A stretch of DNA of 64,000 nt from Dehalococcoidia bacterium (GTDB lineage Bacteria > Chloroflexota > Dehalococcoidia > Lucifugimonadales > Lucifugimonadaceae). The position numbers and the translations under genes were made by a program. The DNA lies in NCBI GenBank assembly GCA_965116365.1, contig OZ220682.1:2008001-2072000 (forward strand), in the 5' to 3' direction. The notes beneath the pieces were generated by a model that did no database searches, had not been told where the DNA came from, and saw nothing but the letters and a program-made list of their open reading frames with translations. Position 1 is the first letter of the stretch, and each line of letters opens with the position of its first letter. Positions 4,805 to 12,923 of the stretch are shown piece after piece.

Positions 4805-5515
4805 ATGCCATCCGACCCTAGCGAAATTTCCCAATCTGATCCAGTTGGTGAAGTGCCAAGTGCGGAGATGGGATTCGCTACGGTCGATCTCGATCGGGAG
4901 CGTAGGACCGGCTTTCCAGAGGTCGTGATGGGTCAGGGCAAGACACCGGAGCACATCGCTGAGATTGCGAAACGGATCTACGATGCGTCAGGCATGGTGC
5001 TTGTAACGCGGTCTGATGCAGTCGGTGCTGAAGCTGTTAAGGCGGTGGTTCCGAGTGCTCATTTCATCGAGAGTTGCGGGGCGATCTGGGCTGACGATCG
5101 GGGTTTAGTGGCGAAGCACGAGGGGTTGGTTGTGGTGTCTGCTGGTACTGCTGATATGGCGGTTGCGGATGAGGCGGAGATTGTGGCGAAGTTGATGCTT
5201 TGTGATGTCCGGCGGATCAATGATGTCGGTGTGGCAGGTATTCACCGATTGTTGGCGCATAAAGACGTGTTGCAGGCGGCGCGGGCGATTGTGGTGGTTG
5301 CAGGTATGGATGGTGCGTTACCGAGCGTTGTCGGCGGACTTGTCGAAGCGCCGGTTATTGCGGTGCCTACGAGTAATGGATATGGGACCGGATTGGAGGG
5401 CTTTTCGGCGATGCTGACGATGCTGAACTCGTGCTCGCCGGGAGTTTCGGTTGTGAATATCGACGCGGGGTTCTCAGCGGGGTATCAGGCGGCGCTGATT
5501 TGTCGGGCGGGATGA
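4805..5515 (+). CDS. larB: LarB-type (PurE-like) nickel-pincer cofactor biosynthesis carboxylase/hydrolase
   Basis: DLDRERRTGFPEVVMGQGKT...VVSAGTADMAVADEA...GIHRLL...VVAGMDGALPSVVGGL...PVIAVPTS.GYG matches the AIR-carboxylase-related LarB/CpmA family. The true start could instead be the internal Met at codon 22. Confidence 0.8.
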   Translation: MPSDPSEISQSDPVGEVPSAEMGFATVDLDRERRTGFPEVVMGQGKTPEHIAEIAKRIYDASGMVLVTRSDAVGAEAVKAVVPSAHFIESCGAIWADDRGLVAKHEGLVVVSAGTADMAVADEAEIVAKLMLCDVRRINDVGVAGIHRLLAHKDVLQAARAIVVVAGMDGALPSVVGGLVEAPVIAVPTSNGYGTGLEGFSAMLTMLNSCSPGVSVVNIDAGFSAGYQAALICRAG

Positions 5516-7227: not shown

Positions 7228-7520
7228 CTAATTTTGAATTAGTTTAGATGAAGTCTCATGCGAATATCAATACTTTTCGAAACAAGTCTCGAATTTTCGC
7301 GATCTGCCTTCAGGTGTGTTCAAATTTGTTCAAAATAAATTTAGCATTAATTTGGTTTAAGTTCGTTATAGTTTTGAACTTGTTTAATAATCGATGCGAT
7401 TTCGCTTTGGATTGGCGTGTTTTGGATGATGAACTAGTTTTGGCTAAGTACGAAAATAGGCTTCATCCGCTCTGGCGGCAGTTTGCGGCAAGAAAAAACG
7501 GGGCATTTTGGATTTAGAGA
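7228..7520. other. Strongly AT-rich intergenic block with iterated GTTCAAA and TTTGGAT motifs
   Basis: My hand count gives 13/60 GC for 7321-7380, against 55-67% in neighbouring genes. GTTCAAA occurs at 7318-7324 and 7328-7334, with the inverted TTTGAAC at 7373-7379. TTTGGAT occurs at 7406-7412, 7421-7427 and 7507-7513, all in the same orientation. Confidence 0.6.
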
Positions 7521-7554
7521 TTTGCGGTGTGTACGCGCTCCTGTGGCTGCAACG

Positions 7555-7580
7555 AGGACAGGTTTGAAACCTGCCGCTAC
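7555..7580. repeat. REP-like repeat family C
   Basis: aggacaggtttgaaacctgccgctac. It is inverted relative to the copy at 7820-7849. Confidence 0.8.
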
Positions 7581-7756
7581 CGTATCTCTGAAGATGACCC
7601 CTATCGCCTGCCCTTTCGAAAATGGGGGTAGGAGGGAGCGAGATAGGGTTTGGGACGTGTGCGGTGTCGCGAGGCGTGTTTTCGGGGATGTCTAGTTTGG
7701 GGTCTGCCCTGCCCCGTTTTGAAGTGCGGTGACGGTGTGCTTCTTGCGCTCGACGG

Positions 7757-7796
7757 CCCCCTCACCCTAGCCCTCTCCCACGGAAGGGAGAGGGGA
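7757..7796. repeat. Palindromic repeat family A
   Basis: ccccctcaccctagccctctcccacggaagggagagggga. Confidence 0.85.
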
Positions 7797-7819
7797 TTAA
7801 GTCTCGCGCCAACGCATTC

Positions 7820-7849
7820 GTAGCGGCGCAGGTTTGAAACCTGTCCTAC
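7820..7849. repeat. REP-like repeat family C (opposite orientation)
   Basis: gtagcggcgcaggtttgaaacctgtcctac, a GTAG head followed by an imperfect palindrome. Confidence 0.8.
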
Positions 7850-7970
7850 CATTGGATCTTTCGCTTCGCTAACGGGACGGTACGTGTTAGGGTTGCGGTG
7901 GGCGTTTTGGCCCGATGGTGGCTCTTCCGCTGTCGGCTAGAATCGGATTAACGCAACAGTCGGTTTTTCA

Positions 7971-10865
7971 ATGACTACTTCGTCGTCCAAGACGAGATCG
8001 AATGGTCGGACCAAGTGGCTCGATCTGCGGGTCAATGGTGTTGCGGTTCAGTGTGCGGATGGCGGGCGGGTTCTGGATGCGGTGAGGGATGCGGGGTTTG
8101 AGGTGCCGACTCTTTGCTATGACGAACGTGTGGGCGCGCAAGGGACTTGTCGGATGTGTTTGGTCGAGGTGGAGGTGAATGGGAGAGTGGAGCAGGTGGC
8201 GTCATGCACCGCCTTTGCGGAGCAAGGGATGGATGTGGCTACGCACACTGACGAGATTCGGTCGTATCGGAAGACGCTGTTGGAGATGCTGCTTTCGGAG
8301 ATGGCGTCGCCGAATAACAATCCGTATTCCAACAAGGTGGGGCCTACTGAGTTTGATCGTGCGGTTGAGGAGTATGAAGCGAAGTGGGACGCGTTACCTC
8401 ACTTGGGGGCTCGCCCAAAGGCGTCGCACGACGAGAATCCATTCATTCAGCGTGACTACGACTACTGCATCGCGTGTTATCGGTGCACGAACATCTGCAA
8501 CGACTGGGAGCAGGCGGCGGCGATCACGGTGGATGGTCGGGGGCAGGATTCGAGCATCTTCACCTTTTTCGGGAATGAGTTGATCGATTCACCGTGCACT
8601 TTCTGTGGTCAGTGCATCAACACCTGCCCTACTGGCGCGTTGACGGATCGGAAGGTTGTTAGTCAGGACATATCGGCAGAGGATATTGACCGGACGCAGT
8701 CGGTATGTCCGTACTGCGGTGTGGGATGCGGTATCGAGATATTGACGCATGACGGCGAGATCATCGGAGCGGAGCCGGACTTCACTGCTGCGAGTCGCGG
8801 CTCGCTTTGTGTGAAGGGTCAGTTCGCGTCTTGGGAGTTCGTGAGGAGCGAAGATCGGTTACGTCATCCGTTGATCAAACAGCCGGACGGGACTTTCCGC
8901 AAGGCGTCGTGGGACGAGGCATTGGATCTGGTTTCGTCGAAGTTCAAGGATGCGATCGCGGAAGAGGGGCCGGATTCTGTTGTTTGTTGGGCATCGGCTC
9001 GCGTGGTTACGGAAGCGAACTACCTGATGCAGAAGTTCGCTCGTGTCGCGATAGGGACGAACAATATCGACAACTGTTCCCGTACTTGACACGCTCCGAC
9101 GGTCGCCGGTCTGGCGGTCATGGTGGGAAGAGGAGCGATGTCGAACTCGATCGAGGAGTTGGCTGGCACCGATTTCCTGCTGGTTACAGGCTCCAACACT
9201 ACAGAGGCGCATCCGGTCATATCGTTGCGGATGAAGCGCGCAGTGAAGAATGGTGCCAAGTTAGTGGTGGTCGATCCGCGCAAAATCGAGCTTACGAATT
9301 GGGCGACGCGACACGTTCAGATCAAGGTCGGGACCGATATCCCGTTCTACAACGCGGTTGCGCACGTGATTATTAATGAGGGGTTGTACGATCCGGAGTT
9401 CGTCGAGCATCGGACTGAAGGTTTCGAGGCATTCGCTCGGCACGTGCAGATGTACACACCAGAGTATTCGGCGGAAATCTGCGGAGTAACTCCAGAGGAG
9501 ATTATCGAGACGGCACGGGAGTTTGCAGCGGCGGCACCGAAGGCTTCGATCTGCTACACGCTAGGCATTACCGAGCACTCTTGCGGCTCGCACAATGTTC
9601 AGTCGCTGGGAAATCTGGGACTGCTGTGCGGGACGTTGGGAGTGCCGAACGCGGGCGTGAATCCGCTTCGTGGTCAGAACAATGTTCAGGGTGCGGGCGA
9701 TGCCGGCTGTATTCCGACCGATCTGCCGGGGTACCAGAAGGTGGAACGTCCGGGAATTCGCGAGCAGTTCGAAGAGGCTTGGGGCGAGCCGCTGCCGAAA
9801 CGTCGGGGTATCACGAAGATCACGGCGATGGAGCAGATGATCAAGGGACGAGTGAAGGCGGTTTACGTGATGGGTGAGAACACGATCGTGTCGGACCCGC
9901 ACGCCAACCACGCCGAACATGCGCTGAGGTCGGTCGATTTCCTCGTGGTTCAGGACATATTTCTGACTGAAACGGCGCAGCTAGCGGACGTGGTTCTGCC
10001 AGCGGGGGCATTTGCGGAGTCGGACGGGACGTTTGCGAATAGCGAGCGACGAGTCCAACGGGTACGCCCTGCTGTTGCGCCGCCGGGCGAGGCGAAGACC
10101 GATGTCGAGATTCTGTTGACGCTGTTCGAGCGGATGGGCAAGCCGCAAGATATGAAGACGGCGACGGATGTTTTCAACGAGATGCGGAGCGTAACGCCGA
10201 TCTATGGTGGGATTTCGCATGAACGGTTGGAACGTGACGGAGGGATTCAGTGGCCATGCGGGGACGAGGACGATCCGGGGACGGAGTATTTGCACGGCGA
10301 CGAGTTTTCTACTGGTTTTCCTGGCTTCTTCGCACCAGTGGACCATATTCCACCAGCTGAGGAACCAGACGAGGAGTATCCCTGGATGCTGACTACGGGG
10401 CGGCGGAGGTCGACATATCACACGGGGACGCAGACGGGGCAGGCGTCGGGCTTCCAACTGTTAGTGCCGCACGAGATGCTGGAGATCAATCCGCGAGACG
10501 CAGAGGAGATGGGGTTGGAGGACGGCGATTTGCTGGATGTTGCGTCTAGGCGTGGGCAGGTAACAGTGGCGGCGCGGTTGACAGAGCGATCTCCCCGAGG
10601 TCTGGTCTTCATGTCGTTCGCATTTCCGGAGTTCACTCGGACAAACGATGTGACTTCAGACGCTTACGACTTCATCACAGAGACTCCGGAGTTCAAGGCA
10701 TGTGCGGTGAAGATATCGAAGTCGTCGCGTCAGGACGAAGAGTTCAGGCAGGCGCAGCGTCGGATACGGCTGGCAGGAGAGGTTAAGCAGCCGACGGAGT
10801 TGATGCCGGGGGTGAATGGGCATCGGAACGGACTAAAGTTGACAGATGTTCCAGATAGGCAGTAA
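7971..10865 (+). CDS. fdhA: Selenocysteine-containing formate dehydrogenase alpha subunit (2Fe-2S + 4Fe-4S + molybdopterin domains), read through the TGA at 9087-9089
   Basis: ORFs 7971-9089 and 9120-10865 are in the same frame. The sequence across the junction reads NNIDNCSRT-TGA-HAPTVAGLAVMVGRGAMSNSIEEL, which is the FdhF-type active-site context with TGA at the Sec position. The N-terminus carries CxxC clusters (CRMC, CIACYRCTNIC, CTFCGQCINTCP, CPYCGVGCG) and the C-terminus has MopB/molybdopterin-binding motifs. Confidence 0.9.
9090..9122 (+). promoter_or_regulatory. Bacterial SECIS hairpin directing Sec insertion at the TGA at 9087-9089
   Basis: GGUCGCC (9101-9107) pairs with GGCGGUC (9113-9119) as 7 bp including 2 G-U, around the loop GGUCU (9108-9112). 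The stem starts 11 nt after the UGA. From memory, E. coli fdhF has UGACACG...GGUUGCAGGUCUGCACC, with the same GGUCU apex. Confidence 0.75.
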
Positions 10866-10874
10866 ACTGATCGC

Positions 10875-11501
10875 ATGAGCGCGAGCAGCGACCTTCGACG
10901 AGACCTTGCGGGCCAAACTTTCGGGACGGTGCTGGCTGATCCGCCATGGCGGTTCCACAACCGTACCGGCAAGGTTGCGCCAGAACACCGCCGACTTTCA
11001 CGCTACGACACCCTGTCTTTCGACGAAATCGCAGCATTGCCGGTAGCAGAACACATGGATGAAACTGCTCACTGCTACCTGTGGGTGCCCAACGCGTTGC
11101 TGCCGTACGGGTTGTCGGTTCTTGAAGCATGGGGATTCACTTACAAGACAAACCTGATCTGGCACAAGATACGCAAGGACGGTGGATCGGACGGCCGCGG
11201 TGTAGGCTTTTACTTCCGTAACGTCACTGAGATGGTCCTGTTCGGCGTTCGTGGCAAAAATGCCCGCACACTCGCGCCAGGGCGTAGCCAGGTGAACTTG
11301 ATGGCATCACGCAAACGCGAGCACTCCCGTAAACCCGACGAACAGTACGACATCATCGAAGCCTGCTCGTGGGGTCCATATTTGGAACTCTTTGGTCGCG
11401 GTCAGCGCGGAGGATGGACTGTGTGGGGCGACCAAGCTACCGCCAGCTACGAGCCTGACTGGCCGACCTACGACTACAACTCTGCGACCGTGGCAGCATG
11501 A
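10875..11501 (+). CDS. MT-A70 family DNA N6-adenine methyltransferase
   Basis: Has the DPPW catalytic motif (VLADPPWRF). The downstream segment YLWVPN...EAWGF.Y....W.K.....G.G.YFRN.TE..LFG.RG, then HSRKPDE, is typical of MT-A70. It starts 9 nt after the fdhA stop, and its TGA overlaps the ATG of the next gene (ATGA at 11498-11501). Confidence 0.85.
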   Translation: MSASSDLRRDLAGQTFGTVLADPPWRFHNRTGKVAPEHRRLSRYDTLSFDEIAALPVAEHMDETAHCYLWVPNALLPYGLSVLEAWGFTYKTNLIWHKIRKDGGSDGRGVGFYFRNVTEMVLFGVRGKNARTLAPGRSQVNLMASRKREHSRKPDEQYDIIEACSWGPYLELFGRGQRGGWTVWGDQATASYEPDWPTYDYNSATVAA

Positions 11502-12232
11502 ACCTGAGCGACTTGGTGTCAGCCGAGTTCAACATCGATACATTGAACCATGCCGAAGCGGTGTTGGAGCGAGATTTCCCGCAACCTATGTCCGAACTCT
11601 GCGACGTCATGCTGAATATTAGTATTTCGGTGGAAGAGCTTGTGCGTGGCGGAGGCGGTGAATCTCCCGTGACTCGACGGATACGAAACGCGTTAAACGA
11701 CCACGGTTGGCCGACGCGTCAAGTAACTATCCGCAGAATCGTCGATGACGAAGAACGGGCATCAACCACGCACAAAATCGACCACGTACGCTCCACCGAT
11801 TCCGGATCGGTAGCTTTGGAGATCGAATGGAACAACAAAGACCCTTTCTATGACCGCGACTTGGAAAACTTCCAGCGGCTCCACCGCGAGGGAGTCATCA
11901 GTGTCGGTGTAATCATTACACGCGGATCATCTCTGCAAACGGCCCTACACCAGATCGTGTTGGACTTCGCTCATAGGTATCAAATCGCGGGATTTGATGA
12001 TCTGACGACTTTCGGCTACTCGCCCACAGCGCGCCAACAACGCGACGTGGAAAGACGACTTGCTGATAGCGATTTTCCCACCGCATGGAGCCGAGCATTC
12101 GTCACCGACAAGTTCGGTGCTTCCACCACGCACTGGGACAAACTCCAAGAACGCGTCCGCCGAGGCGTTGGCAACCCTTGCCCCCTTCTTCTCATAGGAA
12201 TCCCCGCCCAATCAGTACGGCAGAGCCCATGA
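11498..12232 (+). CDS. BglII/BamHI-fold restriction endonuclease-like protein (R1)
   Basis: The N-terminus FNIDTLNHAEAVLERDF resembles the BglII N-terminus (as I recall, DITDYNHADEIL). The catalytic-type segment is IDH-x10-ALEIEWNNKD, i.e. D...ExE as in BamHI. It is translationally coupled to the methyltransferase. Confidence 0.7.
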   Translation: MNLSDLVSAEFNIDTLNHAEAVLERDFPQPMSELCDVMLNISISVEELVRGGGGESPVTRRIRNALNDHGWPTRQVTIRRIVDDEERASTTHKIDHVRSTDSGSVALEIEWNNKDPFYDRDLENFQRLHREGVISVGVIITRGSSLQTALHQIVLDFAHRYQIAGFDDLTTFGYSPTARQQRDVERRLADSDFPTAWSRAFVTDKFGASTTHWDKLQERVRRGVGNPCPLLLIGIPAQSVRQSP

Positions 12233-12311
12233 ATGTCACGCTAGAACATTGCACACCGCGGCTTATGCATGAACCCGATTACCATCCGAGTAAACACAAC
12301 AGTGGCTATTG

Positions 12312-12923
12312 ATGCGCATCGTTGAGATTCATTCGCATCTTAACGGCGTCGAGTTTTTGTCTATTCGACGTCCATGGTTGTGGCGCGAGATCAAAGACGG
12401 GATTGAGGCCTTAGACATATCAGAGTGCGCGGAGACAGCCTTGGGTTCAAACGATCATTTGCTGCAAGGACGATTTTCGCCAACATCCGTAAAACATGCA
12501 CTCAACAATCGGTTCAAAGATTTAGGTTGGGGAAGACGAGCGACCAGGTTTTGGGCAGCTGATGATGCCGAACTAACAAGAACAGTTGCTCGAATGCCAG
12601 TGGAGATTCAGCTGCGAAATATCAAGTTTCAAGGGGCTGAACCGATCTCCACGCTCTTGGAAGTCGATCACTACAAAGACCGCGTAGCGGTTCAGGTCAA
12701 GTTCGATAACTCATCGCTGACAGGTTACGACACCTACTTGACTTACTTGAATTTCTACGGGTCCGGTCTGATAGACGTGGGGATTCAAATCCTGCCGATG
12801 AAAGAACTTGAGACTCAGATGTCGTCGGGTGTGGCCTGTTACGAGCGTGACTTGCTGAACATCATTCGCCAAGGGCGTGGTGTTCCGGCTGTACCGCTTG
12901 TATTGATGGGGATCGCGCCTTAG
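12312..12923 (+). CDS. Second, divergent BglII-fold restriction endonuclease-like protein (R2)
   Basis: IVEIHSHLNGVEFLSIRRPWLWREIKDGI resembles the BglII N-terminus. VDHYKDRVAVQVKFDN aligns with BglII DIDFGKRDTLVEVQFSN, giving D-x8-Q-x-K. The ATG at 12312 was preferred over the TTG at 12309. Three sampled lines give 43-50% GC, about 10 points below R1 and M. Confidence 0.65.
   Translation: MRIVEIHSHLNGVEFLSIRRPWLWREIKDGIEALDISECAETALGSNDHLLQGRFSPTSVKHALNNRFKDLGWGRRATRFWAADDAELTRTVARMPVEIQLRNIKFQGAEPISTLLEVDHYKDRVAVQVKFDNSSLTGYDTYLTYLNFYGSGLIDVGIQILPMKELETQMSSGVACYERDLLNIIRQGRGVPAVPLVLMGIAP

Follow-up and report, generated by a model that had tools for sequence, protein, structure and literature searches.

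The locus analysed here is a formate dehydrogenase gene, fdhA, on the forward strand of a 64,000-nucleotide stretch of DNA (hereafter the window, C1:2008001-2072000) from a Dehalococcoidia bacterium, a presumably sponge-associated member of SAR202 (Chloroflexota). The host genome consists of a single 2.45-Mb contig (C1, GenBank OZ220682.1) with 56% G+C and an estimated completeness of 90%. At first sight the locus holds two open reading frames (ORFs), at 7971-9089 and 9120-10865 on the plus strand, which lie in one common frame. As the initial annotation of the window had stated, the sole stop between them is the TGA at 9087-9089; retranslation gave the same result and reproduced the context quoted there, NNIDNCSRT-U-HAPTVAGL. 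With the TGA translated as U, for selenocysteine (Sec), positions 7971-10865 yield a single product of 964 residues that contains no further internal stop and in which the Sec context is TNNIDNCSRT-U-HAPTVAGLAVMVG. On the sequence evidence set out below, we consider it very probable that this region is one intact gene, fdhA, and that its internal UGA is decoded as Sec with the help of a hairpin just downstream. Recoding of UGA to Sec of this sort is ordinary and well known, and gene callers routinely miss genes that use it. Elsewhere in the window TGA ends 15 ORFs of 250 aa or more and is the commonest ordinary stop codon; the genetic code is therefore standard, and there is no genome-wide reassignment.

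The fdhA product and its active site

The whole protein scores 773.5 bits with the NCBIfam family TIGR01591 (formate dehydrogenase subunit alpha), whose cut-off is 666.25. NasC, the runner-up, reaches 482 of the required 1100 bits, and all other families likewise stay far below their thresholds. Pfam domains follow one another in the order Fer2_4, Fer4_Nqo3, Molybdop_Fe4S4, Molybdopterin and Molydop_binding (Table 1), which together with the length of 964 residues agrees with the fused 2Fe-2S / 4Fe-4S / MopB architecture that had been proposed from the letters alone. The TGA falls inside the catalytic Molybdopterin domain rather than at the junction of two domains. Every one of the best solved relatives is a formate dehydrogenase (7qv7, 9t1s, 6tg9, 7e5z and 1aa6); the solved relatives include FdhF of the T. 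kivui hydrogen-dependent CO2 reductase (HDCR), an F420-dependent formate dehydrogenase, R. capsulatus-type FdsA, M. extorquens Fdh1A, B. subtilis YjgC and E. coli FdhH.

Alignment with E. coli FdhF (BLASTP, 39% identity over 715 residues) places U373, H374, R567 and K282 opposite U140, H141, R333 and K44. In E. coli K-12 fdhF the first in-frame stop is likewise a TGA, codon 140, in the context TNNVDCCARV-U-HGPSVAGL. The proposal that the TGA occupies the column in which FdhF-type enzymes carry Sec or Cys thus held: the column is Sec140 in E. coli FdhF, Cys in the T. kivui FdhF and in FdsA, and X, which we take as Sec, in the F420-dependent enzyme 9t1s. U373, H374, R567, K282 and all sixteen cysteines of the [2Fe-2S] and three [4Fe-4S] clusters are invariant among 75 distinct SAR202 orthologues. 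These comprise the four [2Fe-2S] ligands, kept in all 75 orthologues having the column, the eight ligands of the ferredoxin-like domain (Cys166, 169, 172, 176, 209, 212, 215 and 219), and the CxxCxxxC...C site (C246, C249, C253, C280), which is also shared, together with K282, with E. coli FdhF.

One further site of the N-terminal part appears to have been lost. In the closest Cys-type homologues the region that resembles the N5 site of NuoG reads HPNDCxxCxADGDC, which in the alignment becomes ASPNNNPYSNKVGP in the window protein, with all four ligands replaced. Cys is likewise missing from this site in 48 of the 75 SAR202 orthologues (orthologous loci L082-L132). The other 27 keep CxxCx5C, with Ser or Thr in place of the usual upstream His. 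The pattern looks like a stepwise loss of the cluster within one orthologous group.

Table 1. Features of the fdhA locus, with positions numbered from the first letter of the window
Feature	Position	Strand	Details
fdhA, predicted Sec-containing formate dehydrogenase alpha subunit, 964 aa	7971..10865	+	stop TAA 10863-10865; TIGR01591; orthologues align from residue 1 to ~950
[2Fe-2S] domain, N-terminal, residues 17-93	8019..8249	+	Pfam Fer2_4, E 3.5e-14; Cys49, 60, 63, 79
Degenerate NuoG-N5-like His/Cys3 [4Fe-4S] site, residues 104-132	8280..8366	+	no Cys or ligand His left; no PF10588 match
Ferredoxin-like domain with two [4Fe-4S] motifs, residues 157-225	8439..8645	+	Pfam Fer4_Nqo3 and Fer4_7
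MopB N-terminal [4Fe-4S] domain, residues 241-286	8691..8828	+	Pfam Molybdop_Fe4S4; Cys246, 249, 253, 280, Lys282
Molybdopterin oxidoreductase catalytic domain, residues 296-720	8856..10130	+	PF00384, E 3.5e-69; contains U373, H374, R567
Predicted UGA Sec codon, residue 373, Mo/W ligand position	9087..9089	+	opposite TGA codon 140 in E. coli K-12 fdhF; Cys-type homologues have Cys here
Codons +4 to +10, block of frozen synonymous sites	9099..9119	+	third-position entropy
Putative minimal SECIS hairpin, stem 9101-9107 : 9113-9119, apical loop GGUCU 9108-9112	9101..9119	+	helix conservation; likeness to E. coli
Molybdopterin dinucleotide-binding domain (Molydop_binding), residues 806-912	10386..10706	+	PF01568, E 4e-28

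Conservation of the UGA and of the downstream hairpin

The orthologue sample was drawn from 22 same-genus loci and 80 loci from GTDB species representatives and came to 103 SAR202 orthologous loci in all (59-97% protein identity; 82 distinct sequences). TGA stands at the same column in 103 of 103. Each of the 22 same-genus orthologues (81-97% identity) has exactly one internal TGA, and both halves of the orthologous loci stay open, free of the scattered stops or frameshifts that would mark decayed copies. Two orthologues had been flagged with '2 TGA' (G014) and '1 TGA, 1 TAG' (G020); the extra stops proved to be genuine terminators. More distant paralogues of the same order (40-45% identity) carry TGC or TGT at the Sec column. 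Since the TGA is universal in the 103 loci and the paralogues have Cys codons in its place, neither a pseudogene nor an assembly error explains the pattern. Among the SAR202 orthologues sampled, the predicted Sec form is universal. Several of the closest relatives' genomes are presumably sponge-symbiont metagenome bins.

Bacterial selenocysteine insertion sequence (SECIS) elements are stem-loops just 3' of the UGA, within the ORF, whose apical loop lies about 16-37 nt away and contains G/U; in E. coli the upper stem-loop, 11 nt from the UGA, suffices. Here the letters GGTCGCC (9101-9107) and GGCGGTC (9113-9119) form seven pairs, two of them G-U, around the loop GGTCT (9108-9112), and 11 nt (9090-9100) separate the stem from the TGA; the two arms, the loop and the distance had been read correctly in the initial annotation. 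Counted from the U of the UGA, the first base of the stem is +15 and the GGUCU loop spans +22 to +26. The hairpin at 9101-9119 thus has the position and loop of fdhF-type SECIS elements.

We compared synonymous variation inside and outside this hairpin. Among the 82 distinct orthologous sequences, codons +4 to +10 (ACG GTC GCC GGT CTG GCG GTC) have third-position entropies of 0.00-0.57 bits, and the four-fold codons that flank the element on both sides vary freely, at 1.4-2.0 bits. Over the 890 aligned codons of the 75 orthologues, the 177 conserved four-fold-degenerate columns have a mean third-position entropy of 1.76 bits. Only five of the 177 fall below 0.6 bits, namely codons +5, +6, +7, +9 and +10, all in the hairpin. 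The helix columns 15-21 : 27-33 pair in 100% of cells across 53 distinct sequences, and the changes that do occur preserve pairing: a compensatory change of G15-C33 to A15-U33 (L109), a change of U17-G31 to U17-A31, and eight changes of C21-G27 to U21-G27. These data argue strongly for selection on the hairpin at the RNA level, beyond the protein code. The functional unit looks like a minimal SECIS, a near-invariant element of 21 nt. A lower stem, 7-11 : 46-50, was considered and rejected; although it can form in this genome, positions 9 and 48 (U9-A48 here) do not pair in 31 of the 53 sequences, and its third positions are free.

Selenocysteine machinery and competing readings of the UGA

The Sec-decoding trait is complete, as selA, selB, selC and selD are all present in one genome. 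As had been noted, none of them lies in the window; a genome-wide search found all four elsewhere on the contig, each above its cut-off: selA at C1:1320590 (521.6 bits), selB at C1:132278 (337.1 bits, 617 aa), the tRNA-Sec gene selC at C1:1451351 (anticodon TCA, 68.2 bits; ARAGORN call SeC(tca)) and selD on the minus strand at C1:1042929-1043858 (locus L011, 369.6 bits). SelB has the GTPase domain, domain 2, a beta-barrel, and SelB-wing_2 and SelB-wing_3, the SECIS-binding wings. SelD is itself a predicted selenoprotein (LASCAG-U-AGKL) with Sec at the position of E. coli Cys17, and an 8-bp hairpin with a GGUUU loop starts 28 nt downstream of its UGA. The Sec form of selD is kept in the five same-genus genomes examined. 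In both fdhA and selD the apical loop is GGUYU, an agreement to be expected if one SelB recognises both hairpins.

We also scanned the genome for further selenoproteins with a narrow filter, which asked for a TGA with the frame open before and after it and, 16-40 nt downstream, a stem of 6 bp or more whose loop begins with GGU. The scan gave 35 candidates and recovered both fdhA and selD. The translations of the 14 strongest others looked like non-coding frames or stops upstream of real starts; given the narrow filter, others are possible. Two same-genus genomes, G012 and G024, have no Sec-fdhA orthologue, their best match being a NuoG-like paralogue, and keep selA and the Sec-type selD. This leaves two options: the genus has further selenoproteins or uses of selenium, or the gene is absent from these assemblies (2 and 130 contigs, respectively).

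If the machinery works as in E. coli, SelD would provide the selenophosphate with which SelA converts Ser-tRNA(Sec) to Sec-tRNA(Sec). SelB, loaded with GTP and this tRNA, would bind the hairpin at 9101-9119 through the winged-helix domains of its C-terminal part (about residues 445-617) and, once the ribosome arrives at the UGA, would deliver Sec in competition with release factor 2. Both the binding by SelB and the actual insertion of Sec are proposed here by analogy with the E. coli paradigm and solved homologues. The product would be a metal-dependent formate dehydrogenase catalytic subunit with Mo or W held by a bis-pyranopterin guanine dinucleotide, and is taken to be cytoplasmic because its N-terminus has no twin-arginine motif. 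Sec373 would be the protein ligand of the metal, with His374 and Arg567 completing the formate site. Electrons would pass from the MopB [4Fe-4S] cluster through the two ferredoxin-type [4Fe-4S] clusters to the N-terminal [2Fe-2S] cluster and on to an acceptor that is not encoded beside the gene. Formate as the substrate, Mo or W as the metal and this electron path are likewise suggested by the E. coli paradigm and the solved homologues.

Several observations weigh against this reading. The folding energy of the hairpin is no better than that of shuffled sequence (z = 0.14) and is unremarkable in a genome of 56% G+C, so that the significance of the hairpin derives from the comparative data only. 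There, covariation amounts to a single compensatory event in an element that is almost invariant. RNAfold, which gives the single-sequence minimum-free-energy structure, and RNAalifold both favour another register. The Rfam model RF01989 (SECIS_3) matches 9084-9142 with 34.5 bits and E ~1e-6, a significant value in so short a search, yet stays below its gathering score of 63, and RF01988 scores 15.5 bits against a gathering score of 70. On the side of maturation, no FdhD/FdsC sulfurtransferase (PF02634) was matched in the single-contig genome, with its estimated completeness of 90%, and the MobA match (tblastn) is weak. The alternative register, 19-22 : 29-32 with interrupted lower pairs, is itself broken at C20-G31 by a G31-to-A change in the L110 group. 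It is further disfavoured by the double change of G15 to A and C33 to U in L109, which is compensatory only in the 15-21/27-33 helix. By its anatomy and spacing we describe the element as a probable SECIS of the fdhF type, and not as a member of a curated Rfam family. Genes for MoaA, MoaC and MoeA and a MogA-like gene were found by tblastn of the genome. Given the missing FdhD and the weak MobA, either maturation differs from the E. coli/Rhodobacter paradigm or divergent factors are used.

Three other explanations of the internal UGA were weighed against Sec decoding. The one that fares best, at a very low probability nonetheless, is that the UGA is read as something other than Sec, either as Cys through a Sec-like tRNA or as Trp or Cys by a near-cognate tRNA, with the hairpin acting as a generic stimulator of read-through. 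Which residue is inserted is not decidable from sequence alone, and the two same-genus genomes described above, which keep selA and selD and have no fdhA, show that the machinery is not tied to fdhA alone. Such a reading would nevertheless leave a complete and specific Sec pathway, with SelA, SelD, a winged SelB and a TCA tRNA-Sec, standing beside a gene whose hairpin agrees in both sequence and spacing with the SelB-binding apex of E. coli; moreover, the GGUYU loop motif recurs after the selD UGA, at a known Sec/Cys site of SelD.

Even less probable is the production of two polypeptides, in which translation stops at the UGA at 9087 and restarts at the ATG at 9120 to give an Fe-S subunit and a catalytic subunit. 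An ATG does lie in frame 30 nt after the TGA. The break would, however, fall within the Molybdopterin domain (residues 296-720) instead of at a domain boundary, and would drop both the metal ligand and ten residues, HAPTVAGLAV, that are conserved with E. coli. The ATG encodes the Met of a conserved AVMVG motif and is replaced by TTA (Leu) in L100, so no start codon is required there. Least credible of all, with a negligible probability, is a pseudogene, with a nonsense mutation or an assembly error having put the TGA into a former Cys-type formate dehydrogenase: automatic gene calls do treat the gene in this way, with public orthologue entries that are C-terminal fragments of 535-583 aa, but the same TGA recurs in the 103 independently assembled loci, exactly at the Sec/Cys ligand column and with the Sec machinery present, neither half has another stop or a frameshift, cluster ligands and catalytic residues are invariant, and the orthologue alignments show no relaxed selection downstream of the TGA.

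Genomic setting, implications and comparison with known systems

The neighbours of fdhA are unrelated to formate metabolism. Upstream lie dnaN, larB, a cytochrome c gene and a gene for a repeat-rich helix-turn-helix-like protein; downstream are a restriction-modification island, a 2-hydroxyacid-dehydrogenase-like gene, a CitE-like lyase and a MaoC hydratase. The island (10875-12923) follows the fdhA stop directly and consists of an MT-A70 methylase and two BglII-fold nuclease ORFs. Of 50 related SAR202 loci only 6-9 have it, and the flanking genes are syntenic in about 40, so it is a strain-variable insertion beside fdhA. The larB homologue (nickel-pincer cofactor biosynthesis; 4805-5515, 257 bits against a cut-off of 175) stands between dnaN and the divergent cytochrome c gene and is syntenic with fdhA in about 43 of the 50 loci. 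A 43-nt hairpin repeat, CCCCCTCACCCTAGCCCTCTCCCACGGAAGGGAGAGGGGATTA, occurs at 7757-7799 and at 1044-1086 with 3 mismatches between the copies; blastn matches it at unrelated positions in the relatives L055, L057, L067 (two copies), L081 and L100. The repeat upstream of fdhA looks like a dispersed element resembling repetitive extragenic palindromes (REP). Three small upstream ORFs (7248-7517, 7483-7695 and 7601-7852) were considered as FdsD- or ForE-like partners and rejected; they match no family, and their conservation is confined to the DNA level and to the nearest relatives.

The window contains no NuoE/NuoF-like diaphorase genes, in agreement with the initial annotation, and the genome's only NuoF-like gene lies outside it, at C1:1444363. 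Within 6 kb of Sec-fdhA, no NuoE-, NuoF-, MoeA-, MoaA-, MoaC- or MobA-like gene was found in any of the 50 SAR202 loci, and the genome gave no match to ForE/DUF1641 (PF07849). The only NuoE-NuoF pair (C1:1443252-1445541) belongs to a cluster that extends to 1448295 (locus L136, 7253-12296) and includes a 906-aa NuoG/fdhA-like gene. The NuoF-like protein of this cluster has 621 aa with a long N-terminal extension; the cluster has unrelated flanks and lies about 90 kb from nuoD and 3 kb upstream of tRNA-Sec. We also considered the 906-aa paralogue (C1:1445575-1448295) as a second formate dehydrogenase site. It has the full set of MopB domains but no Cys/Sec-His ligand motif, scores below both the Fdh-alpha and the NuoG cut-off, and was rejected as such a site. 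A NuoEF module shared with this paralogue or a soluble carrier could serve as electron acceptor for FdhA; we offer both as hypotheses only.

FdhA is the most widespread bacterial selenoprotein, and both the mechanism, with its UGA, SECIS and SelABCD, and the protein family are textbook material. Mildly unusual are the traits of this lineage, namely the orphan gene, the lost cluster and the truncated public calls. The public entries for the SAR202 orthologues (clusters P0002-P0121) are nearly all 535-583-aa C-terminal fragments beginning beyond the UGA. They go under the names 'molybdopterin-dependent oxidoreductase', 'hypothetical protein' or, in many SAR202 fragments from the Joint Genome Institute (JGI), 'YjgC'; the truncated call is also found in the complete genome of the cultured Ca. 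Lucifugimonas marina, whose orthologue (L090), at 69-71% identity, shares both the UGA and the hairpin. Metabolic reconstructions of SAR202 list 'subunits of formate dehydrogenase' and make no mention of selenium (PMC6306507, PMC11245477), and we found no link between SAR202 and selenocysteine in the literature searched. Recognising the Sec codon would restore the full-length enzyme and imply a need for selenium in the oxidation of formate and one-carbon compounds in an abundant clade of marine bacteria and sponge symbionts. The near-invariant 21-nt element would provide a clean natural example of a minimal SECIS laid over coding sequence.

It is possible, though we think it rather unlikely, that the SAR202 Sec-FdhA forms a distinct subclass of stand-alone cytoplasmic formate dehydrogenases, Sec-ligated, with no diaphorase, FdhD, ForE or molybdenum cofactor (Moco) gene nearby and with the N5-like cluster stripped in this lineage. 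If so, its electrons would go to a partner that is not predictable from the known types of formate dehydrogenase, candidates being the single NuoEF module shared with the NuoG-like paralogue and a soluble ferredoxin-type carrier, and one-carbon oxidation in a very abundant ocean clade and in sponge symbionts would depend on selenium.

Among known systems, the NAD-linked enzymes FdsABG(D) and Fdh1AB (R. capsulatus FdsA, 6TG9; Methylorubrum extorquens Fdh1A, 7E5Z/7VW6) are collinear with the window protein over the full length and have the same domains (E ~1e-180 against 6tg9 and 7e5z). The closest full-length homologues outside SAR202 (P0034, P0043 and P0062; 47-49% identity) are Cys-type. Such Cys-type homologues, the uncultured P0034 and P0117 among them, lie in operons of nuoE-like, nuoF-like, fdhA and mobA-like genes and keep the HxxxCxxCx5C motif (PF10588). 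The SAR202 gene differs from FdsABG/Fdh1AB in its predicted Sec, where those enzymes have Cys, in the loss of the N5-like cluster in this lineage, and in standing apart from diaphorase and Moco genes, none of which occurs within 6 kb in the 50 loci. ForCE/YjgC-YjgD, the menaquinone-linked formate dehydrogenase of Bacillus subtilis (PDB 8RQZ; PMC8808070), resembles it in that its FdhA is likewise fused to N-terminal Fe-S domains and has no NuoE/F partner (E 1.6e-173, residues 235-915). Unlike that system, the host genome has no ForE (DUF1641), the defining partner, and YjgC uses Cys.

The hairpin had initially been described as a textbook SECIS that mirrors the apex of E. coli fdhF, a description that largely holds, with 'textbook' a little too generous. 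Both elements begin UGACACG..., have GGU of the upper stem at +15 to +17 and share GGUCUG at +22 to +27. The present hairpin departs from the E. coli element in its seven continuous pairs, with U17 paired to G31 where U17 is bulged in E. coli, and in its 5-nt loop, GGUCU, closed by C-G, where E. coli has 4 nt. No conserved lower stem is evident, as synonymous sites outside 9099-9119 vary freely, and the Rfam score stays below gathering. The match to RF01989 runs the full length of the model and keeps UGA, bulge-type stem and GUC apex in register; several of the model's lower-stem pairs are non-canonical here. At the protein level, the likeness to E. coli FdhF (Sec140; PDB 1AA6/1FDO) covers the catalytic module, in which Sec, His, Arg, Lys and the four [4Fe-4S] cysteines occupy the same columns. 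The window gene differs in having no hydrogenase partner, and its product carries an extra 240-residue N-terminal extension with the [2Fe-2S] and two [4Fe-4S] clusters, as well as a 45-residue C-terminal tail.

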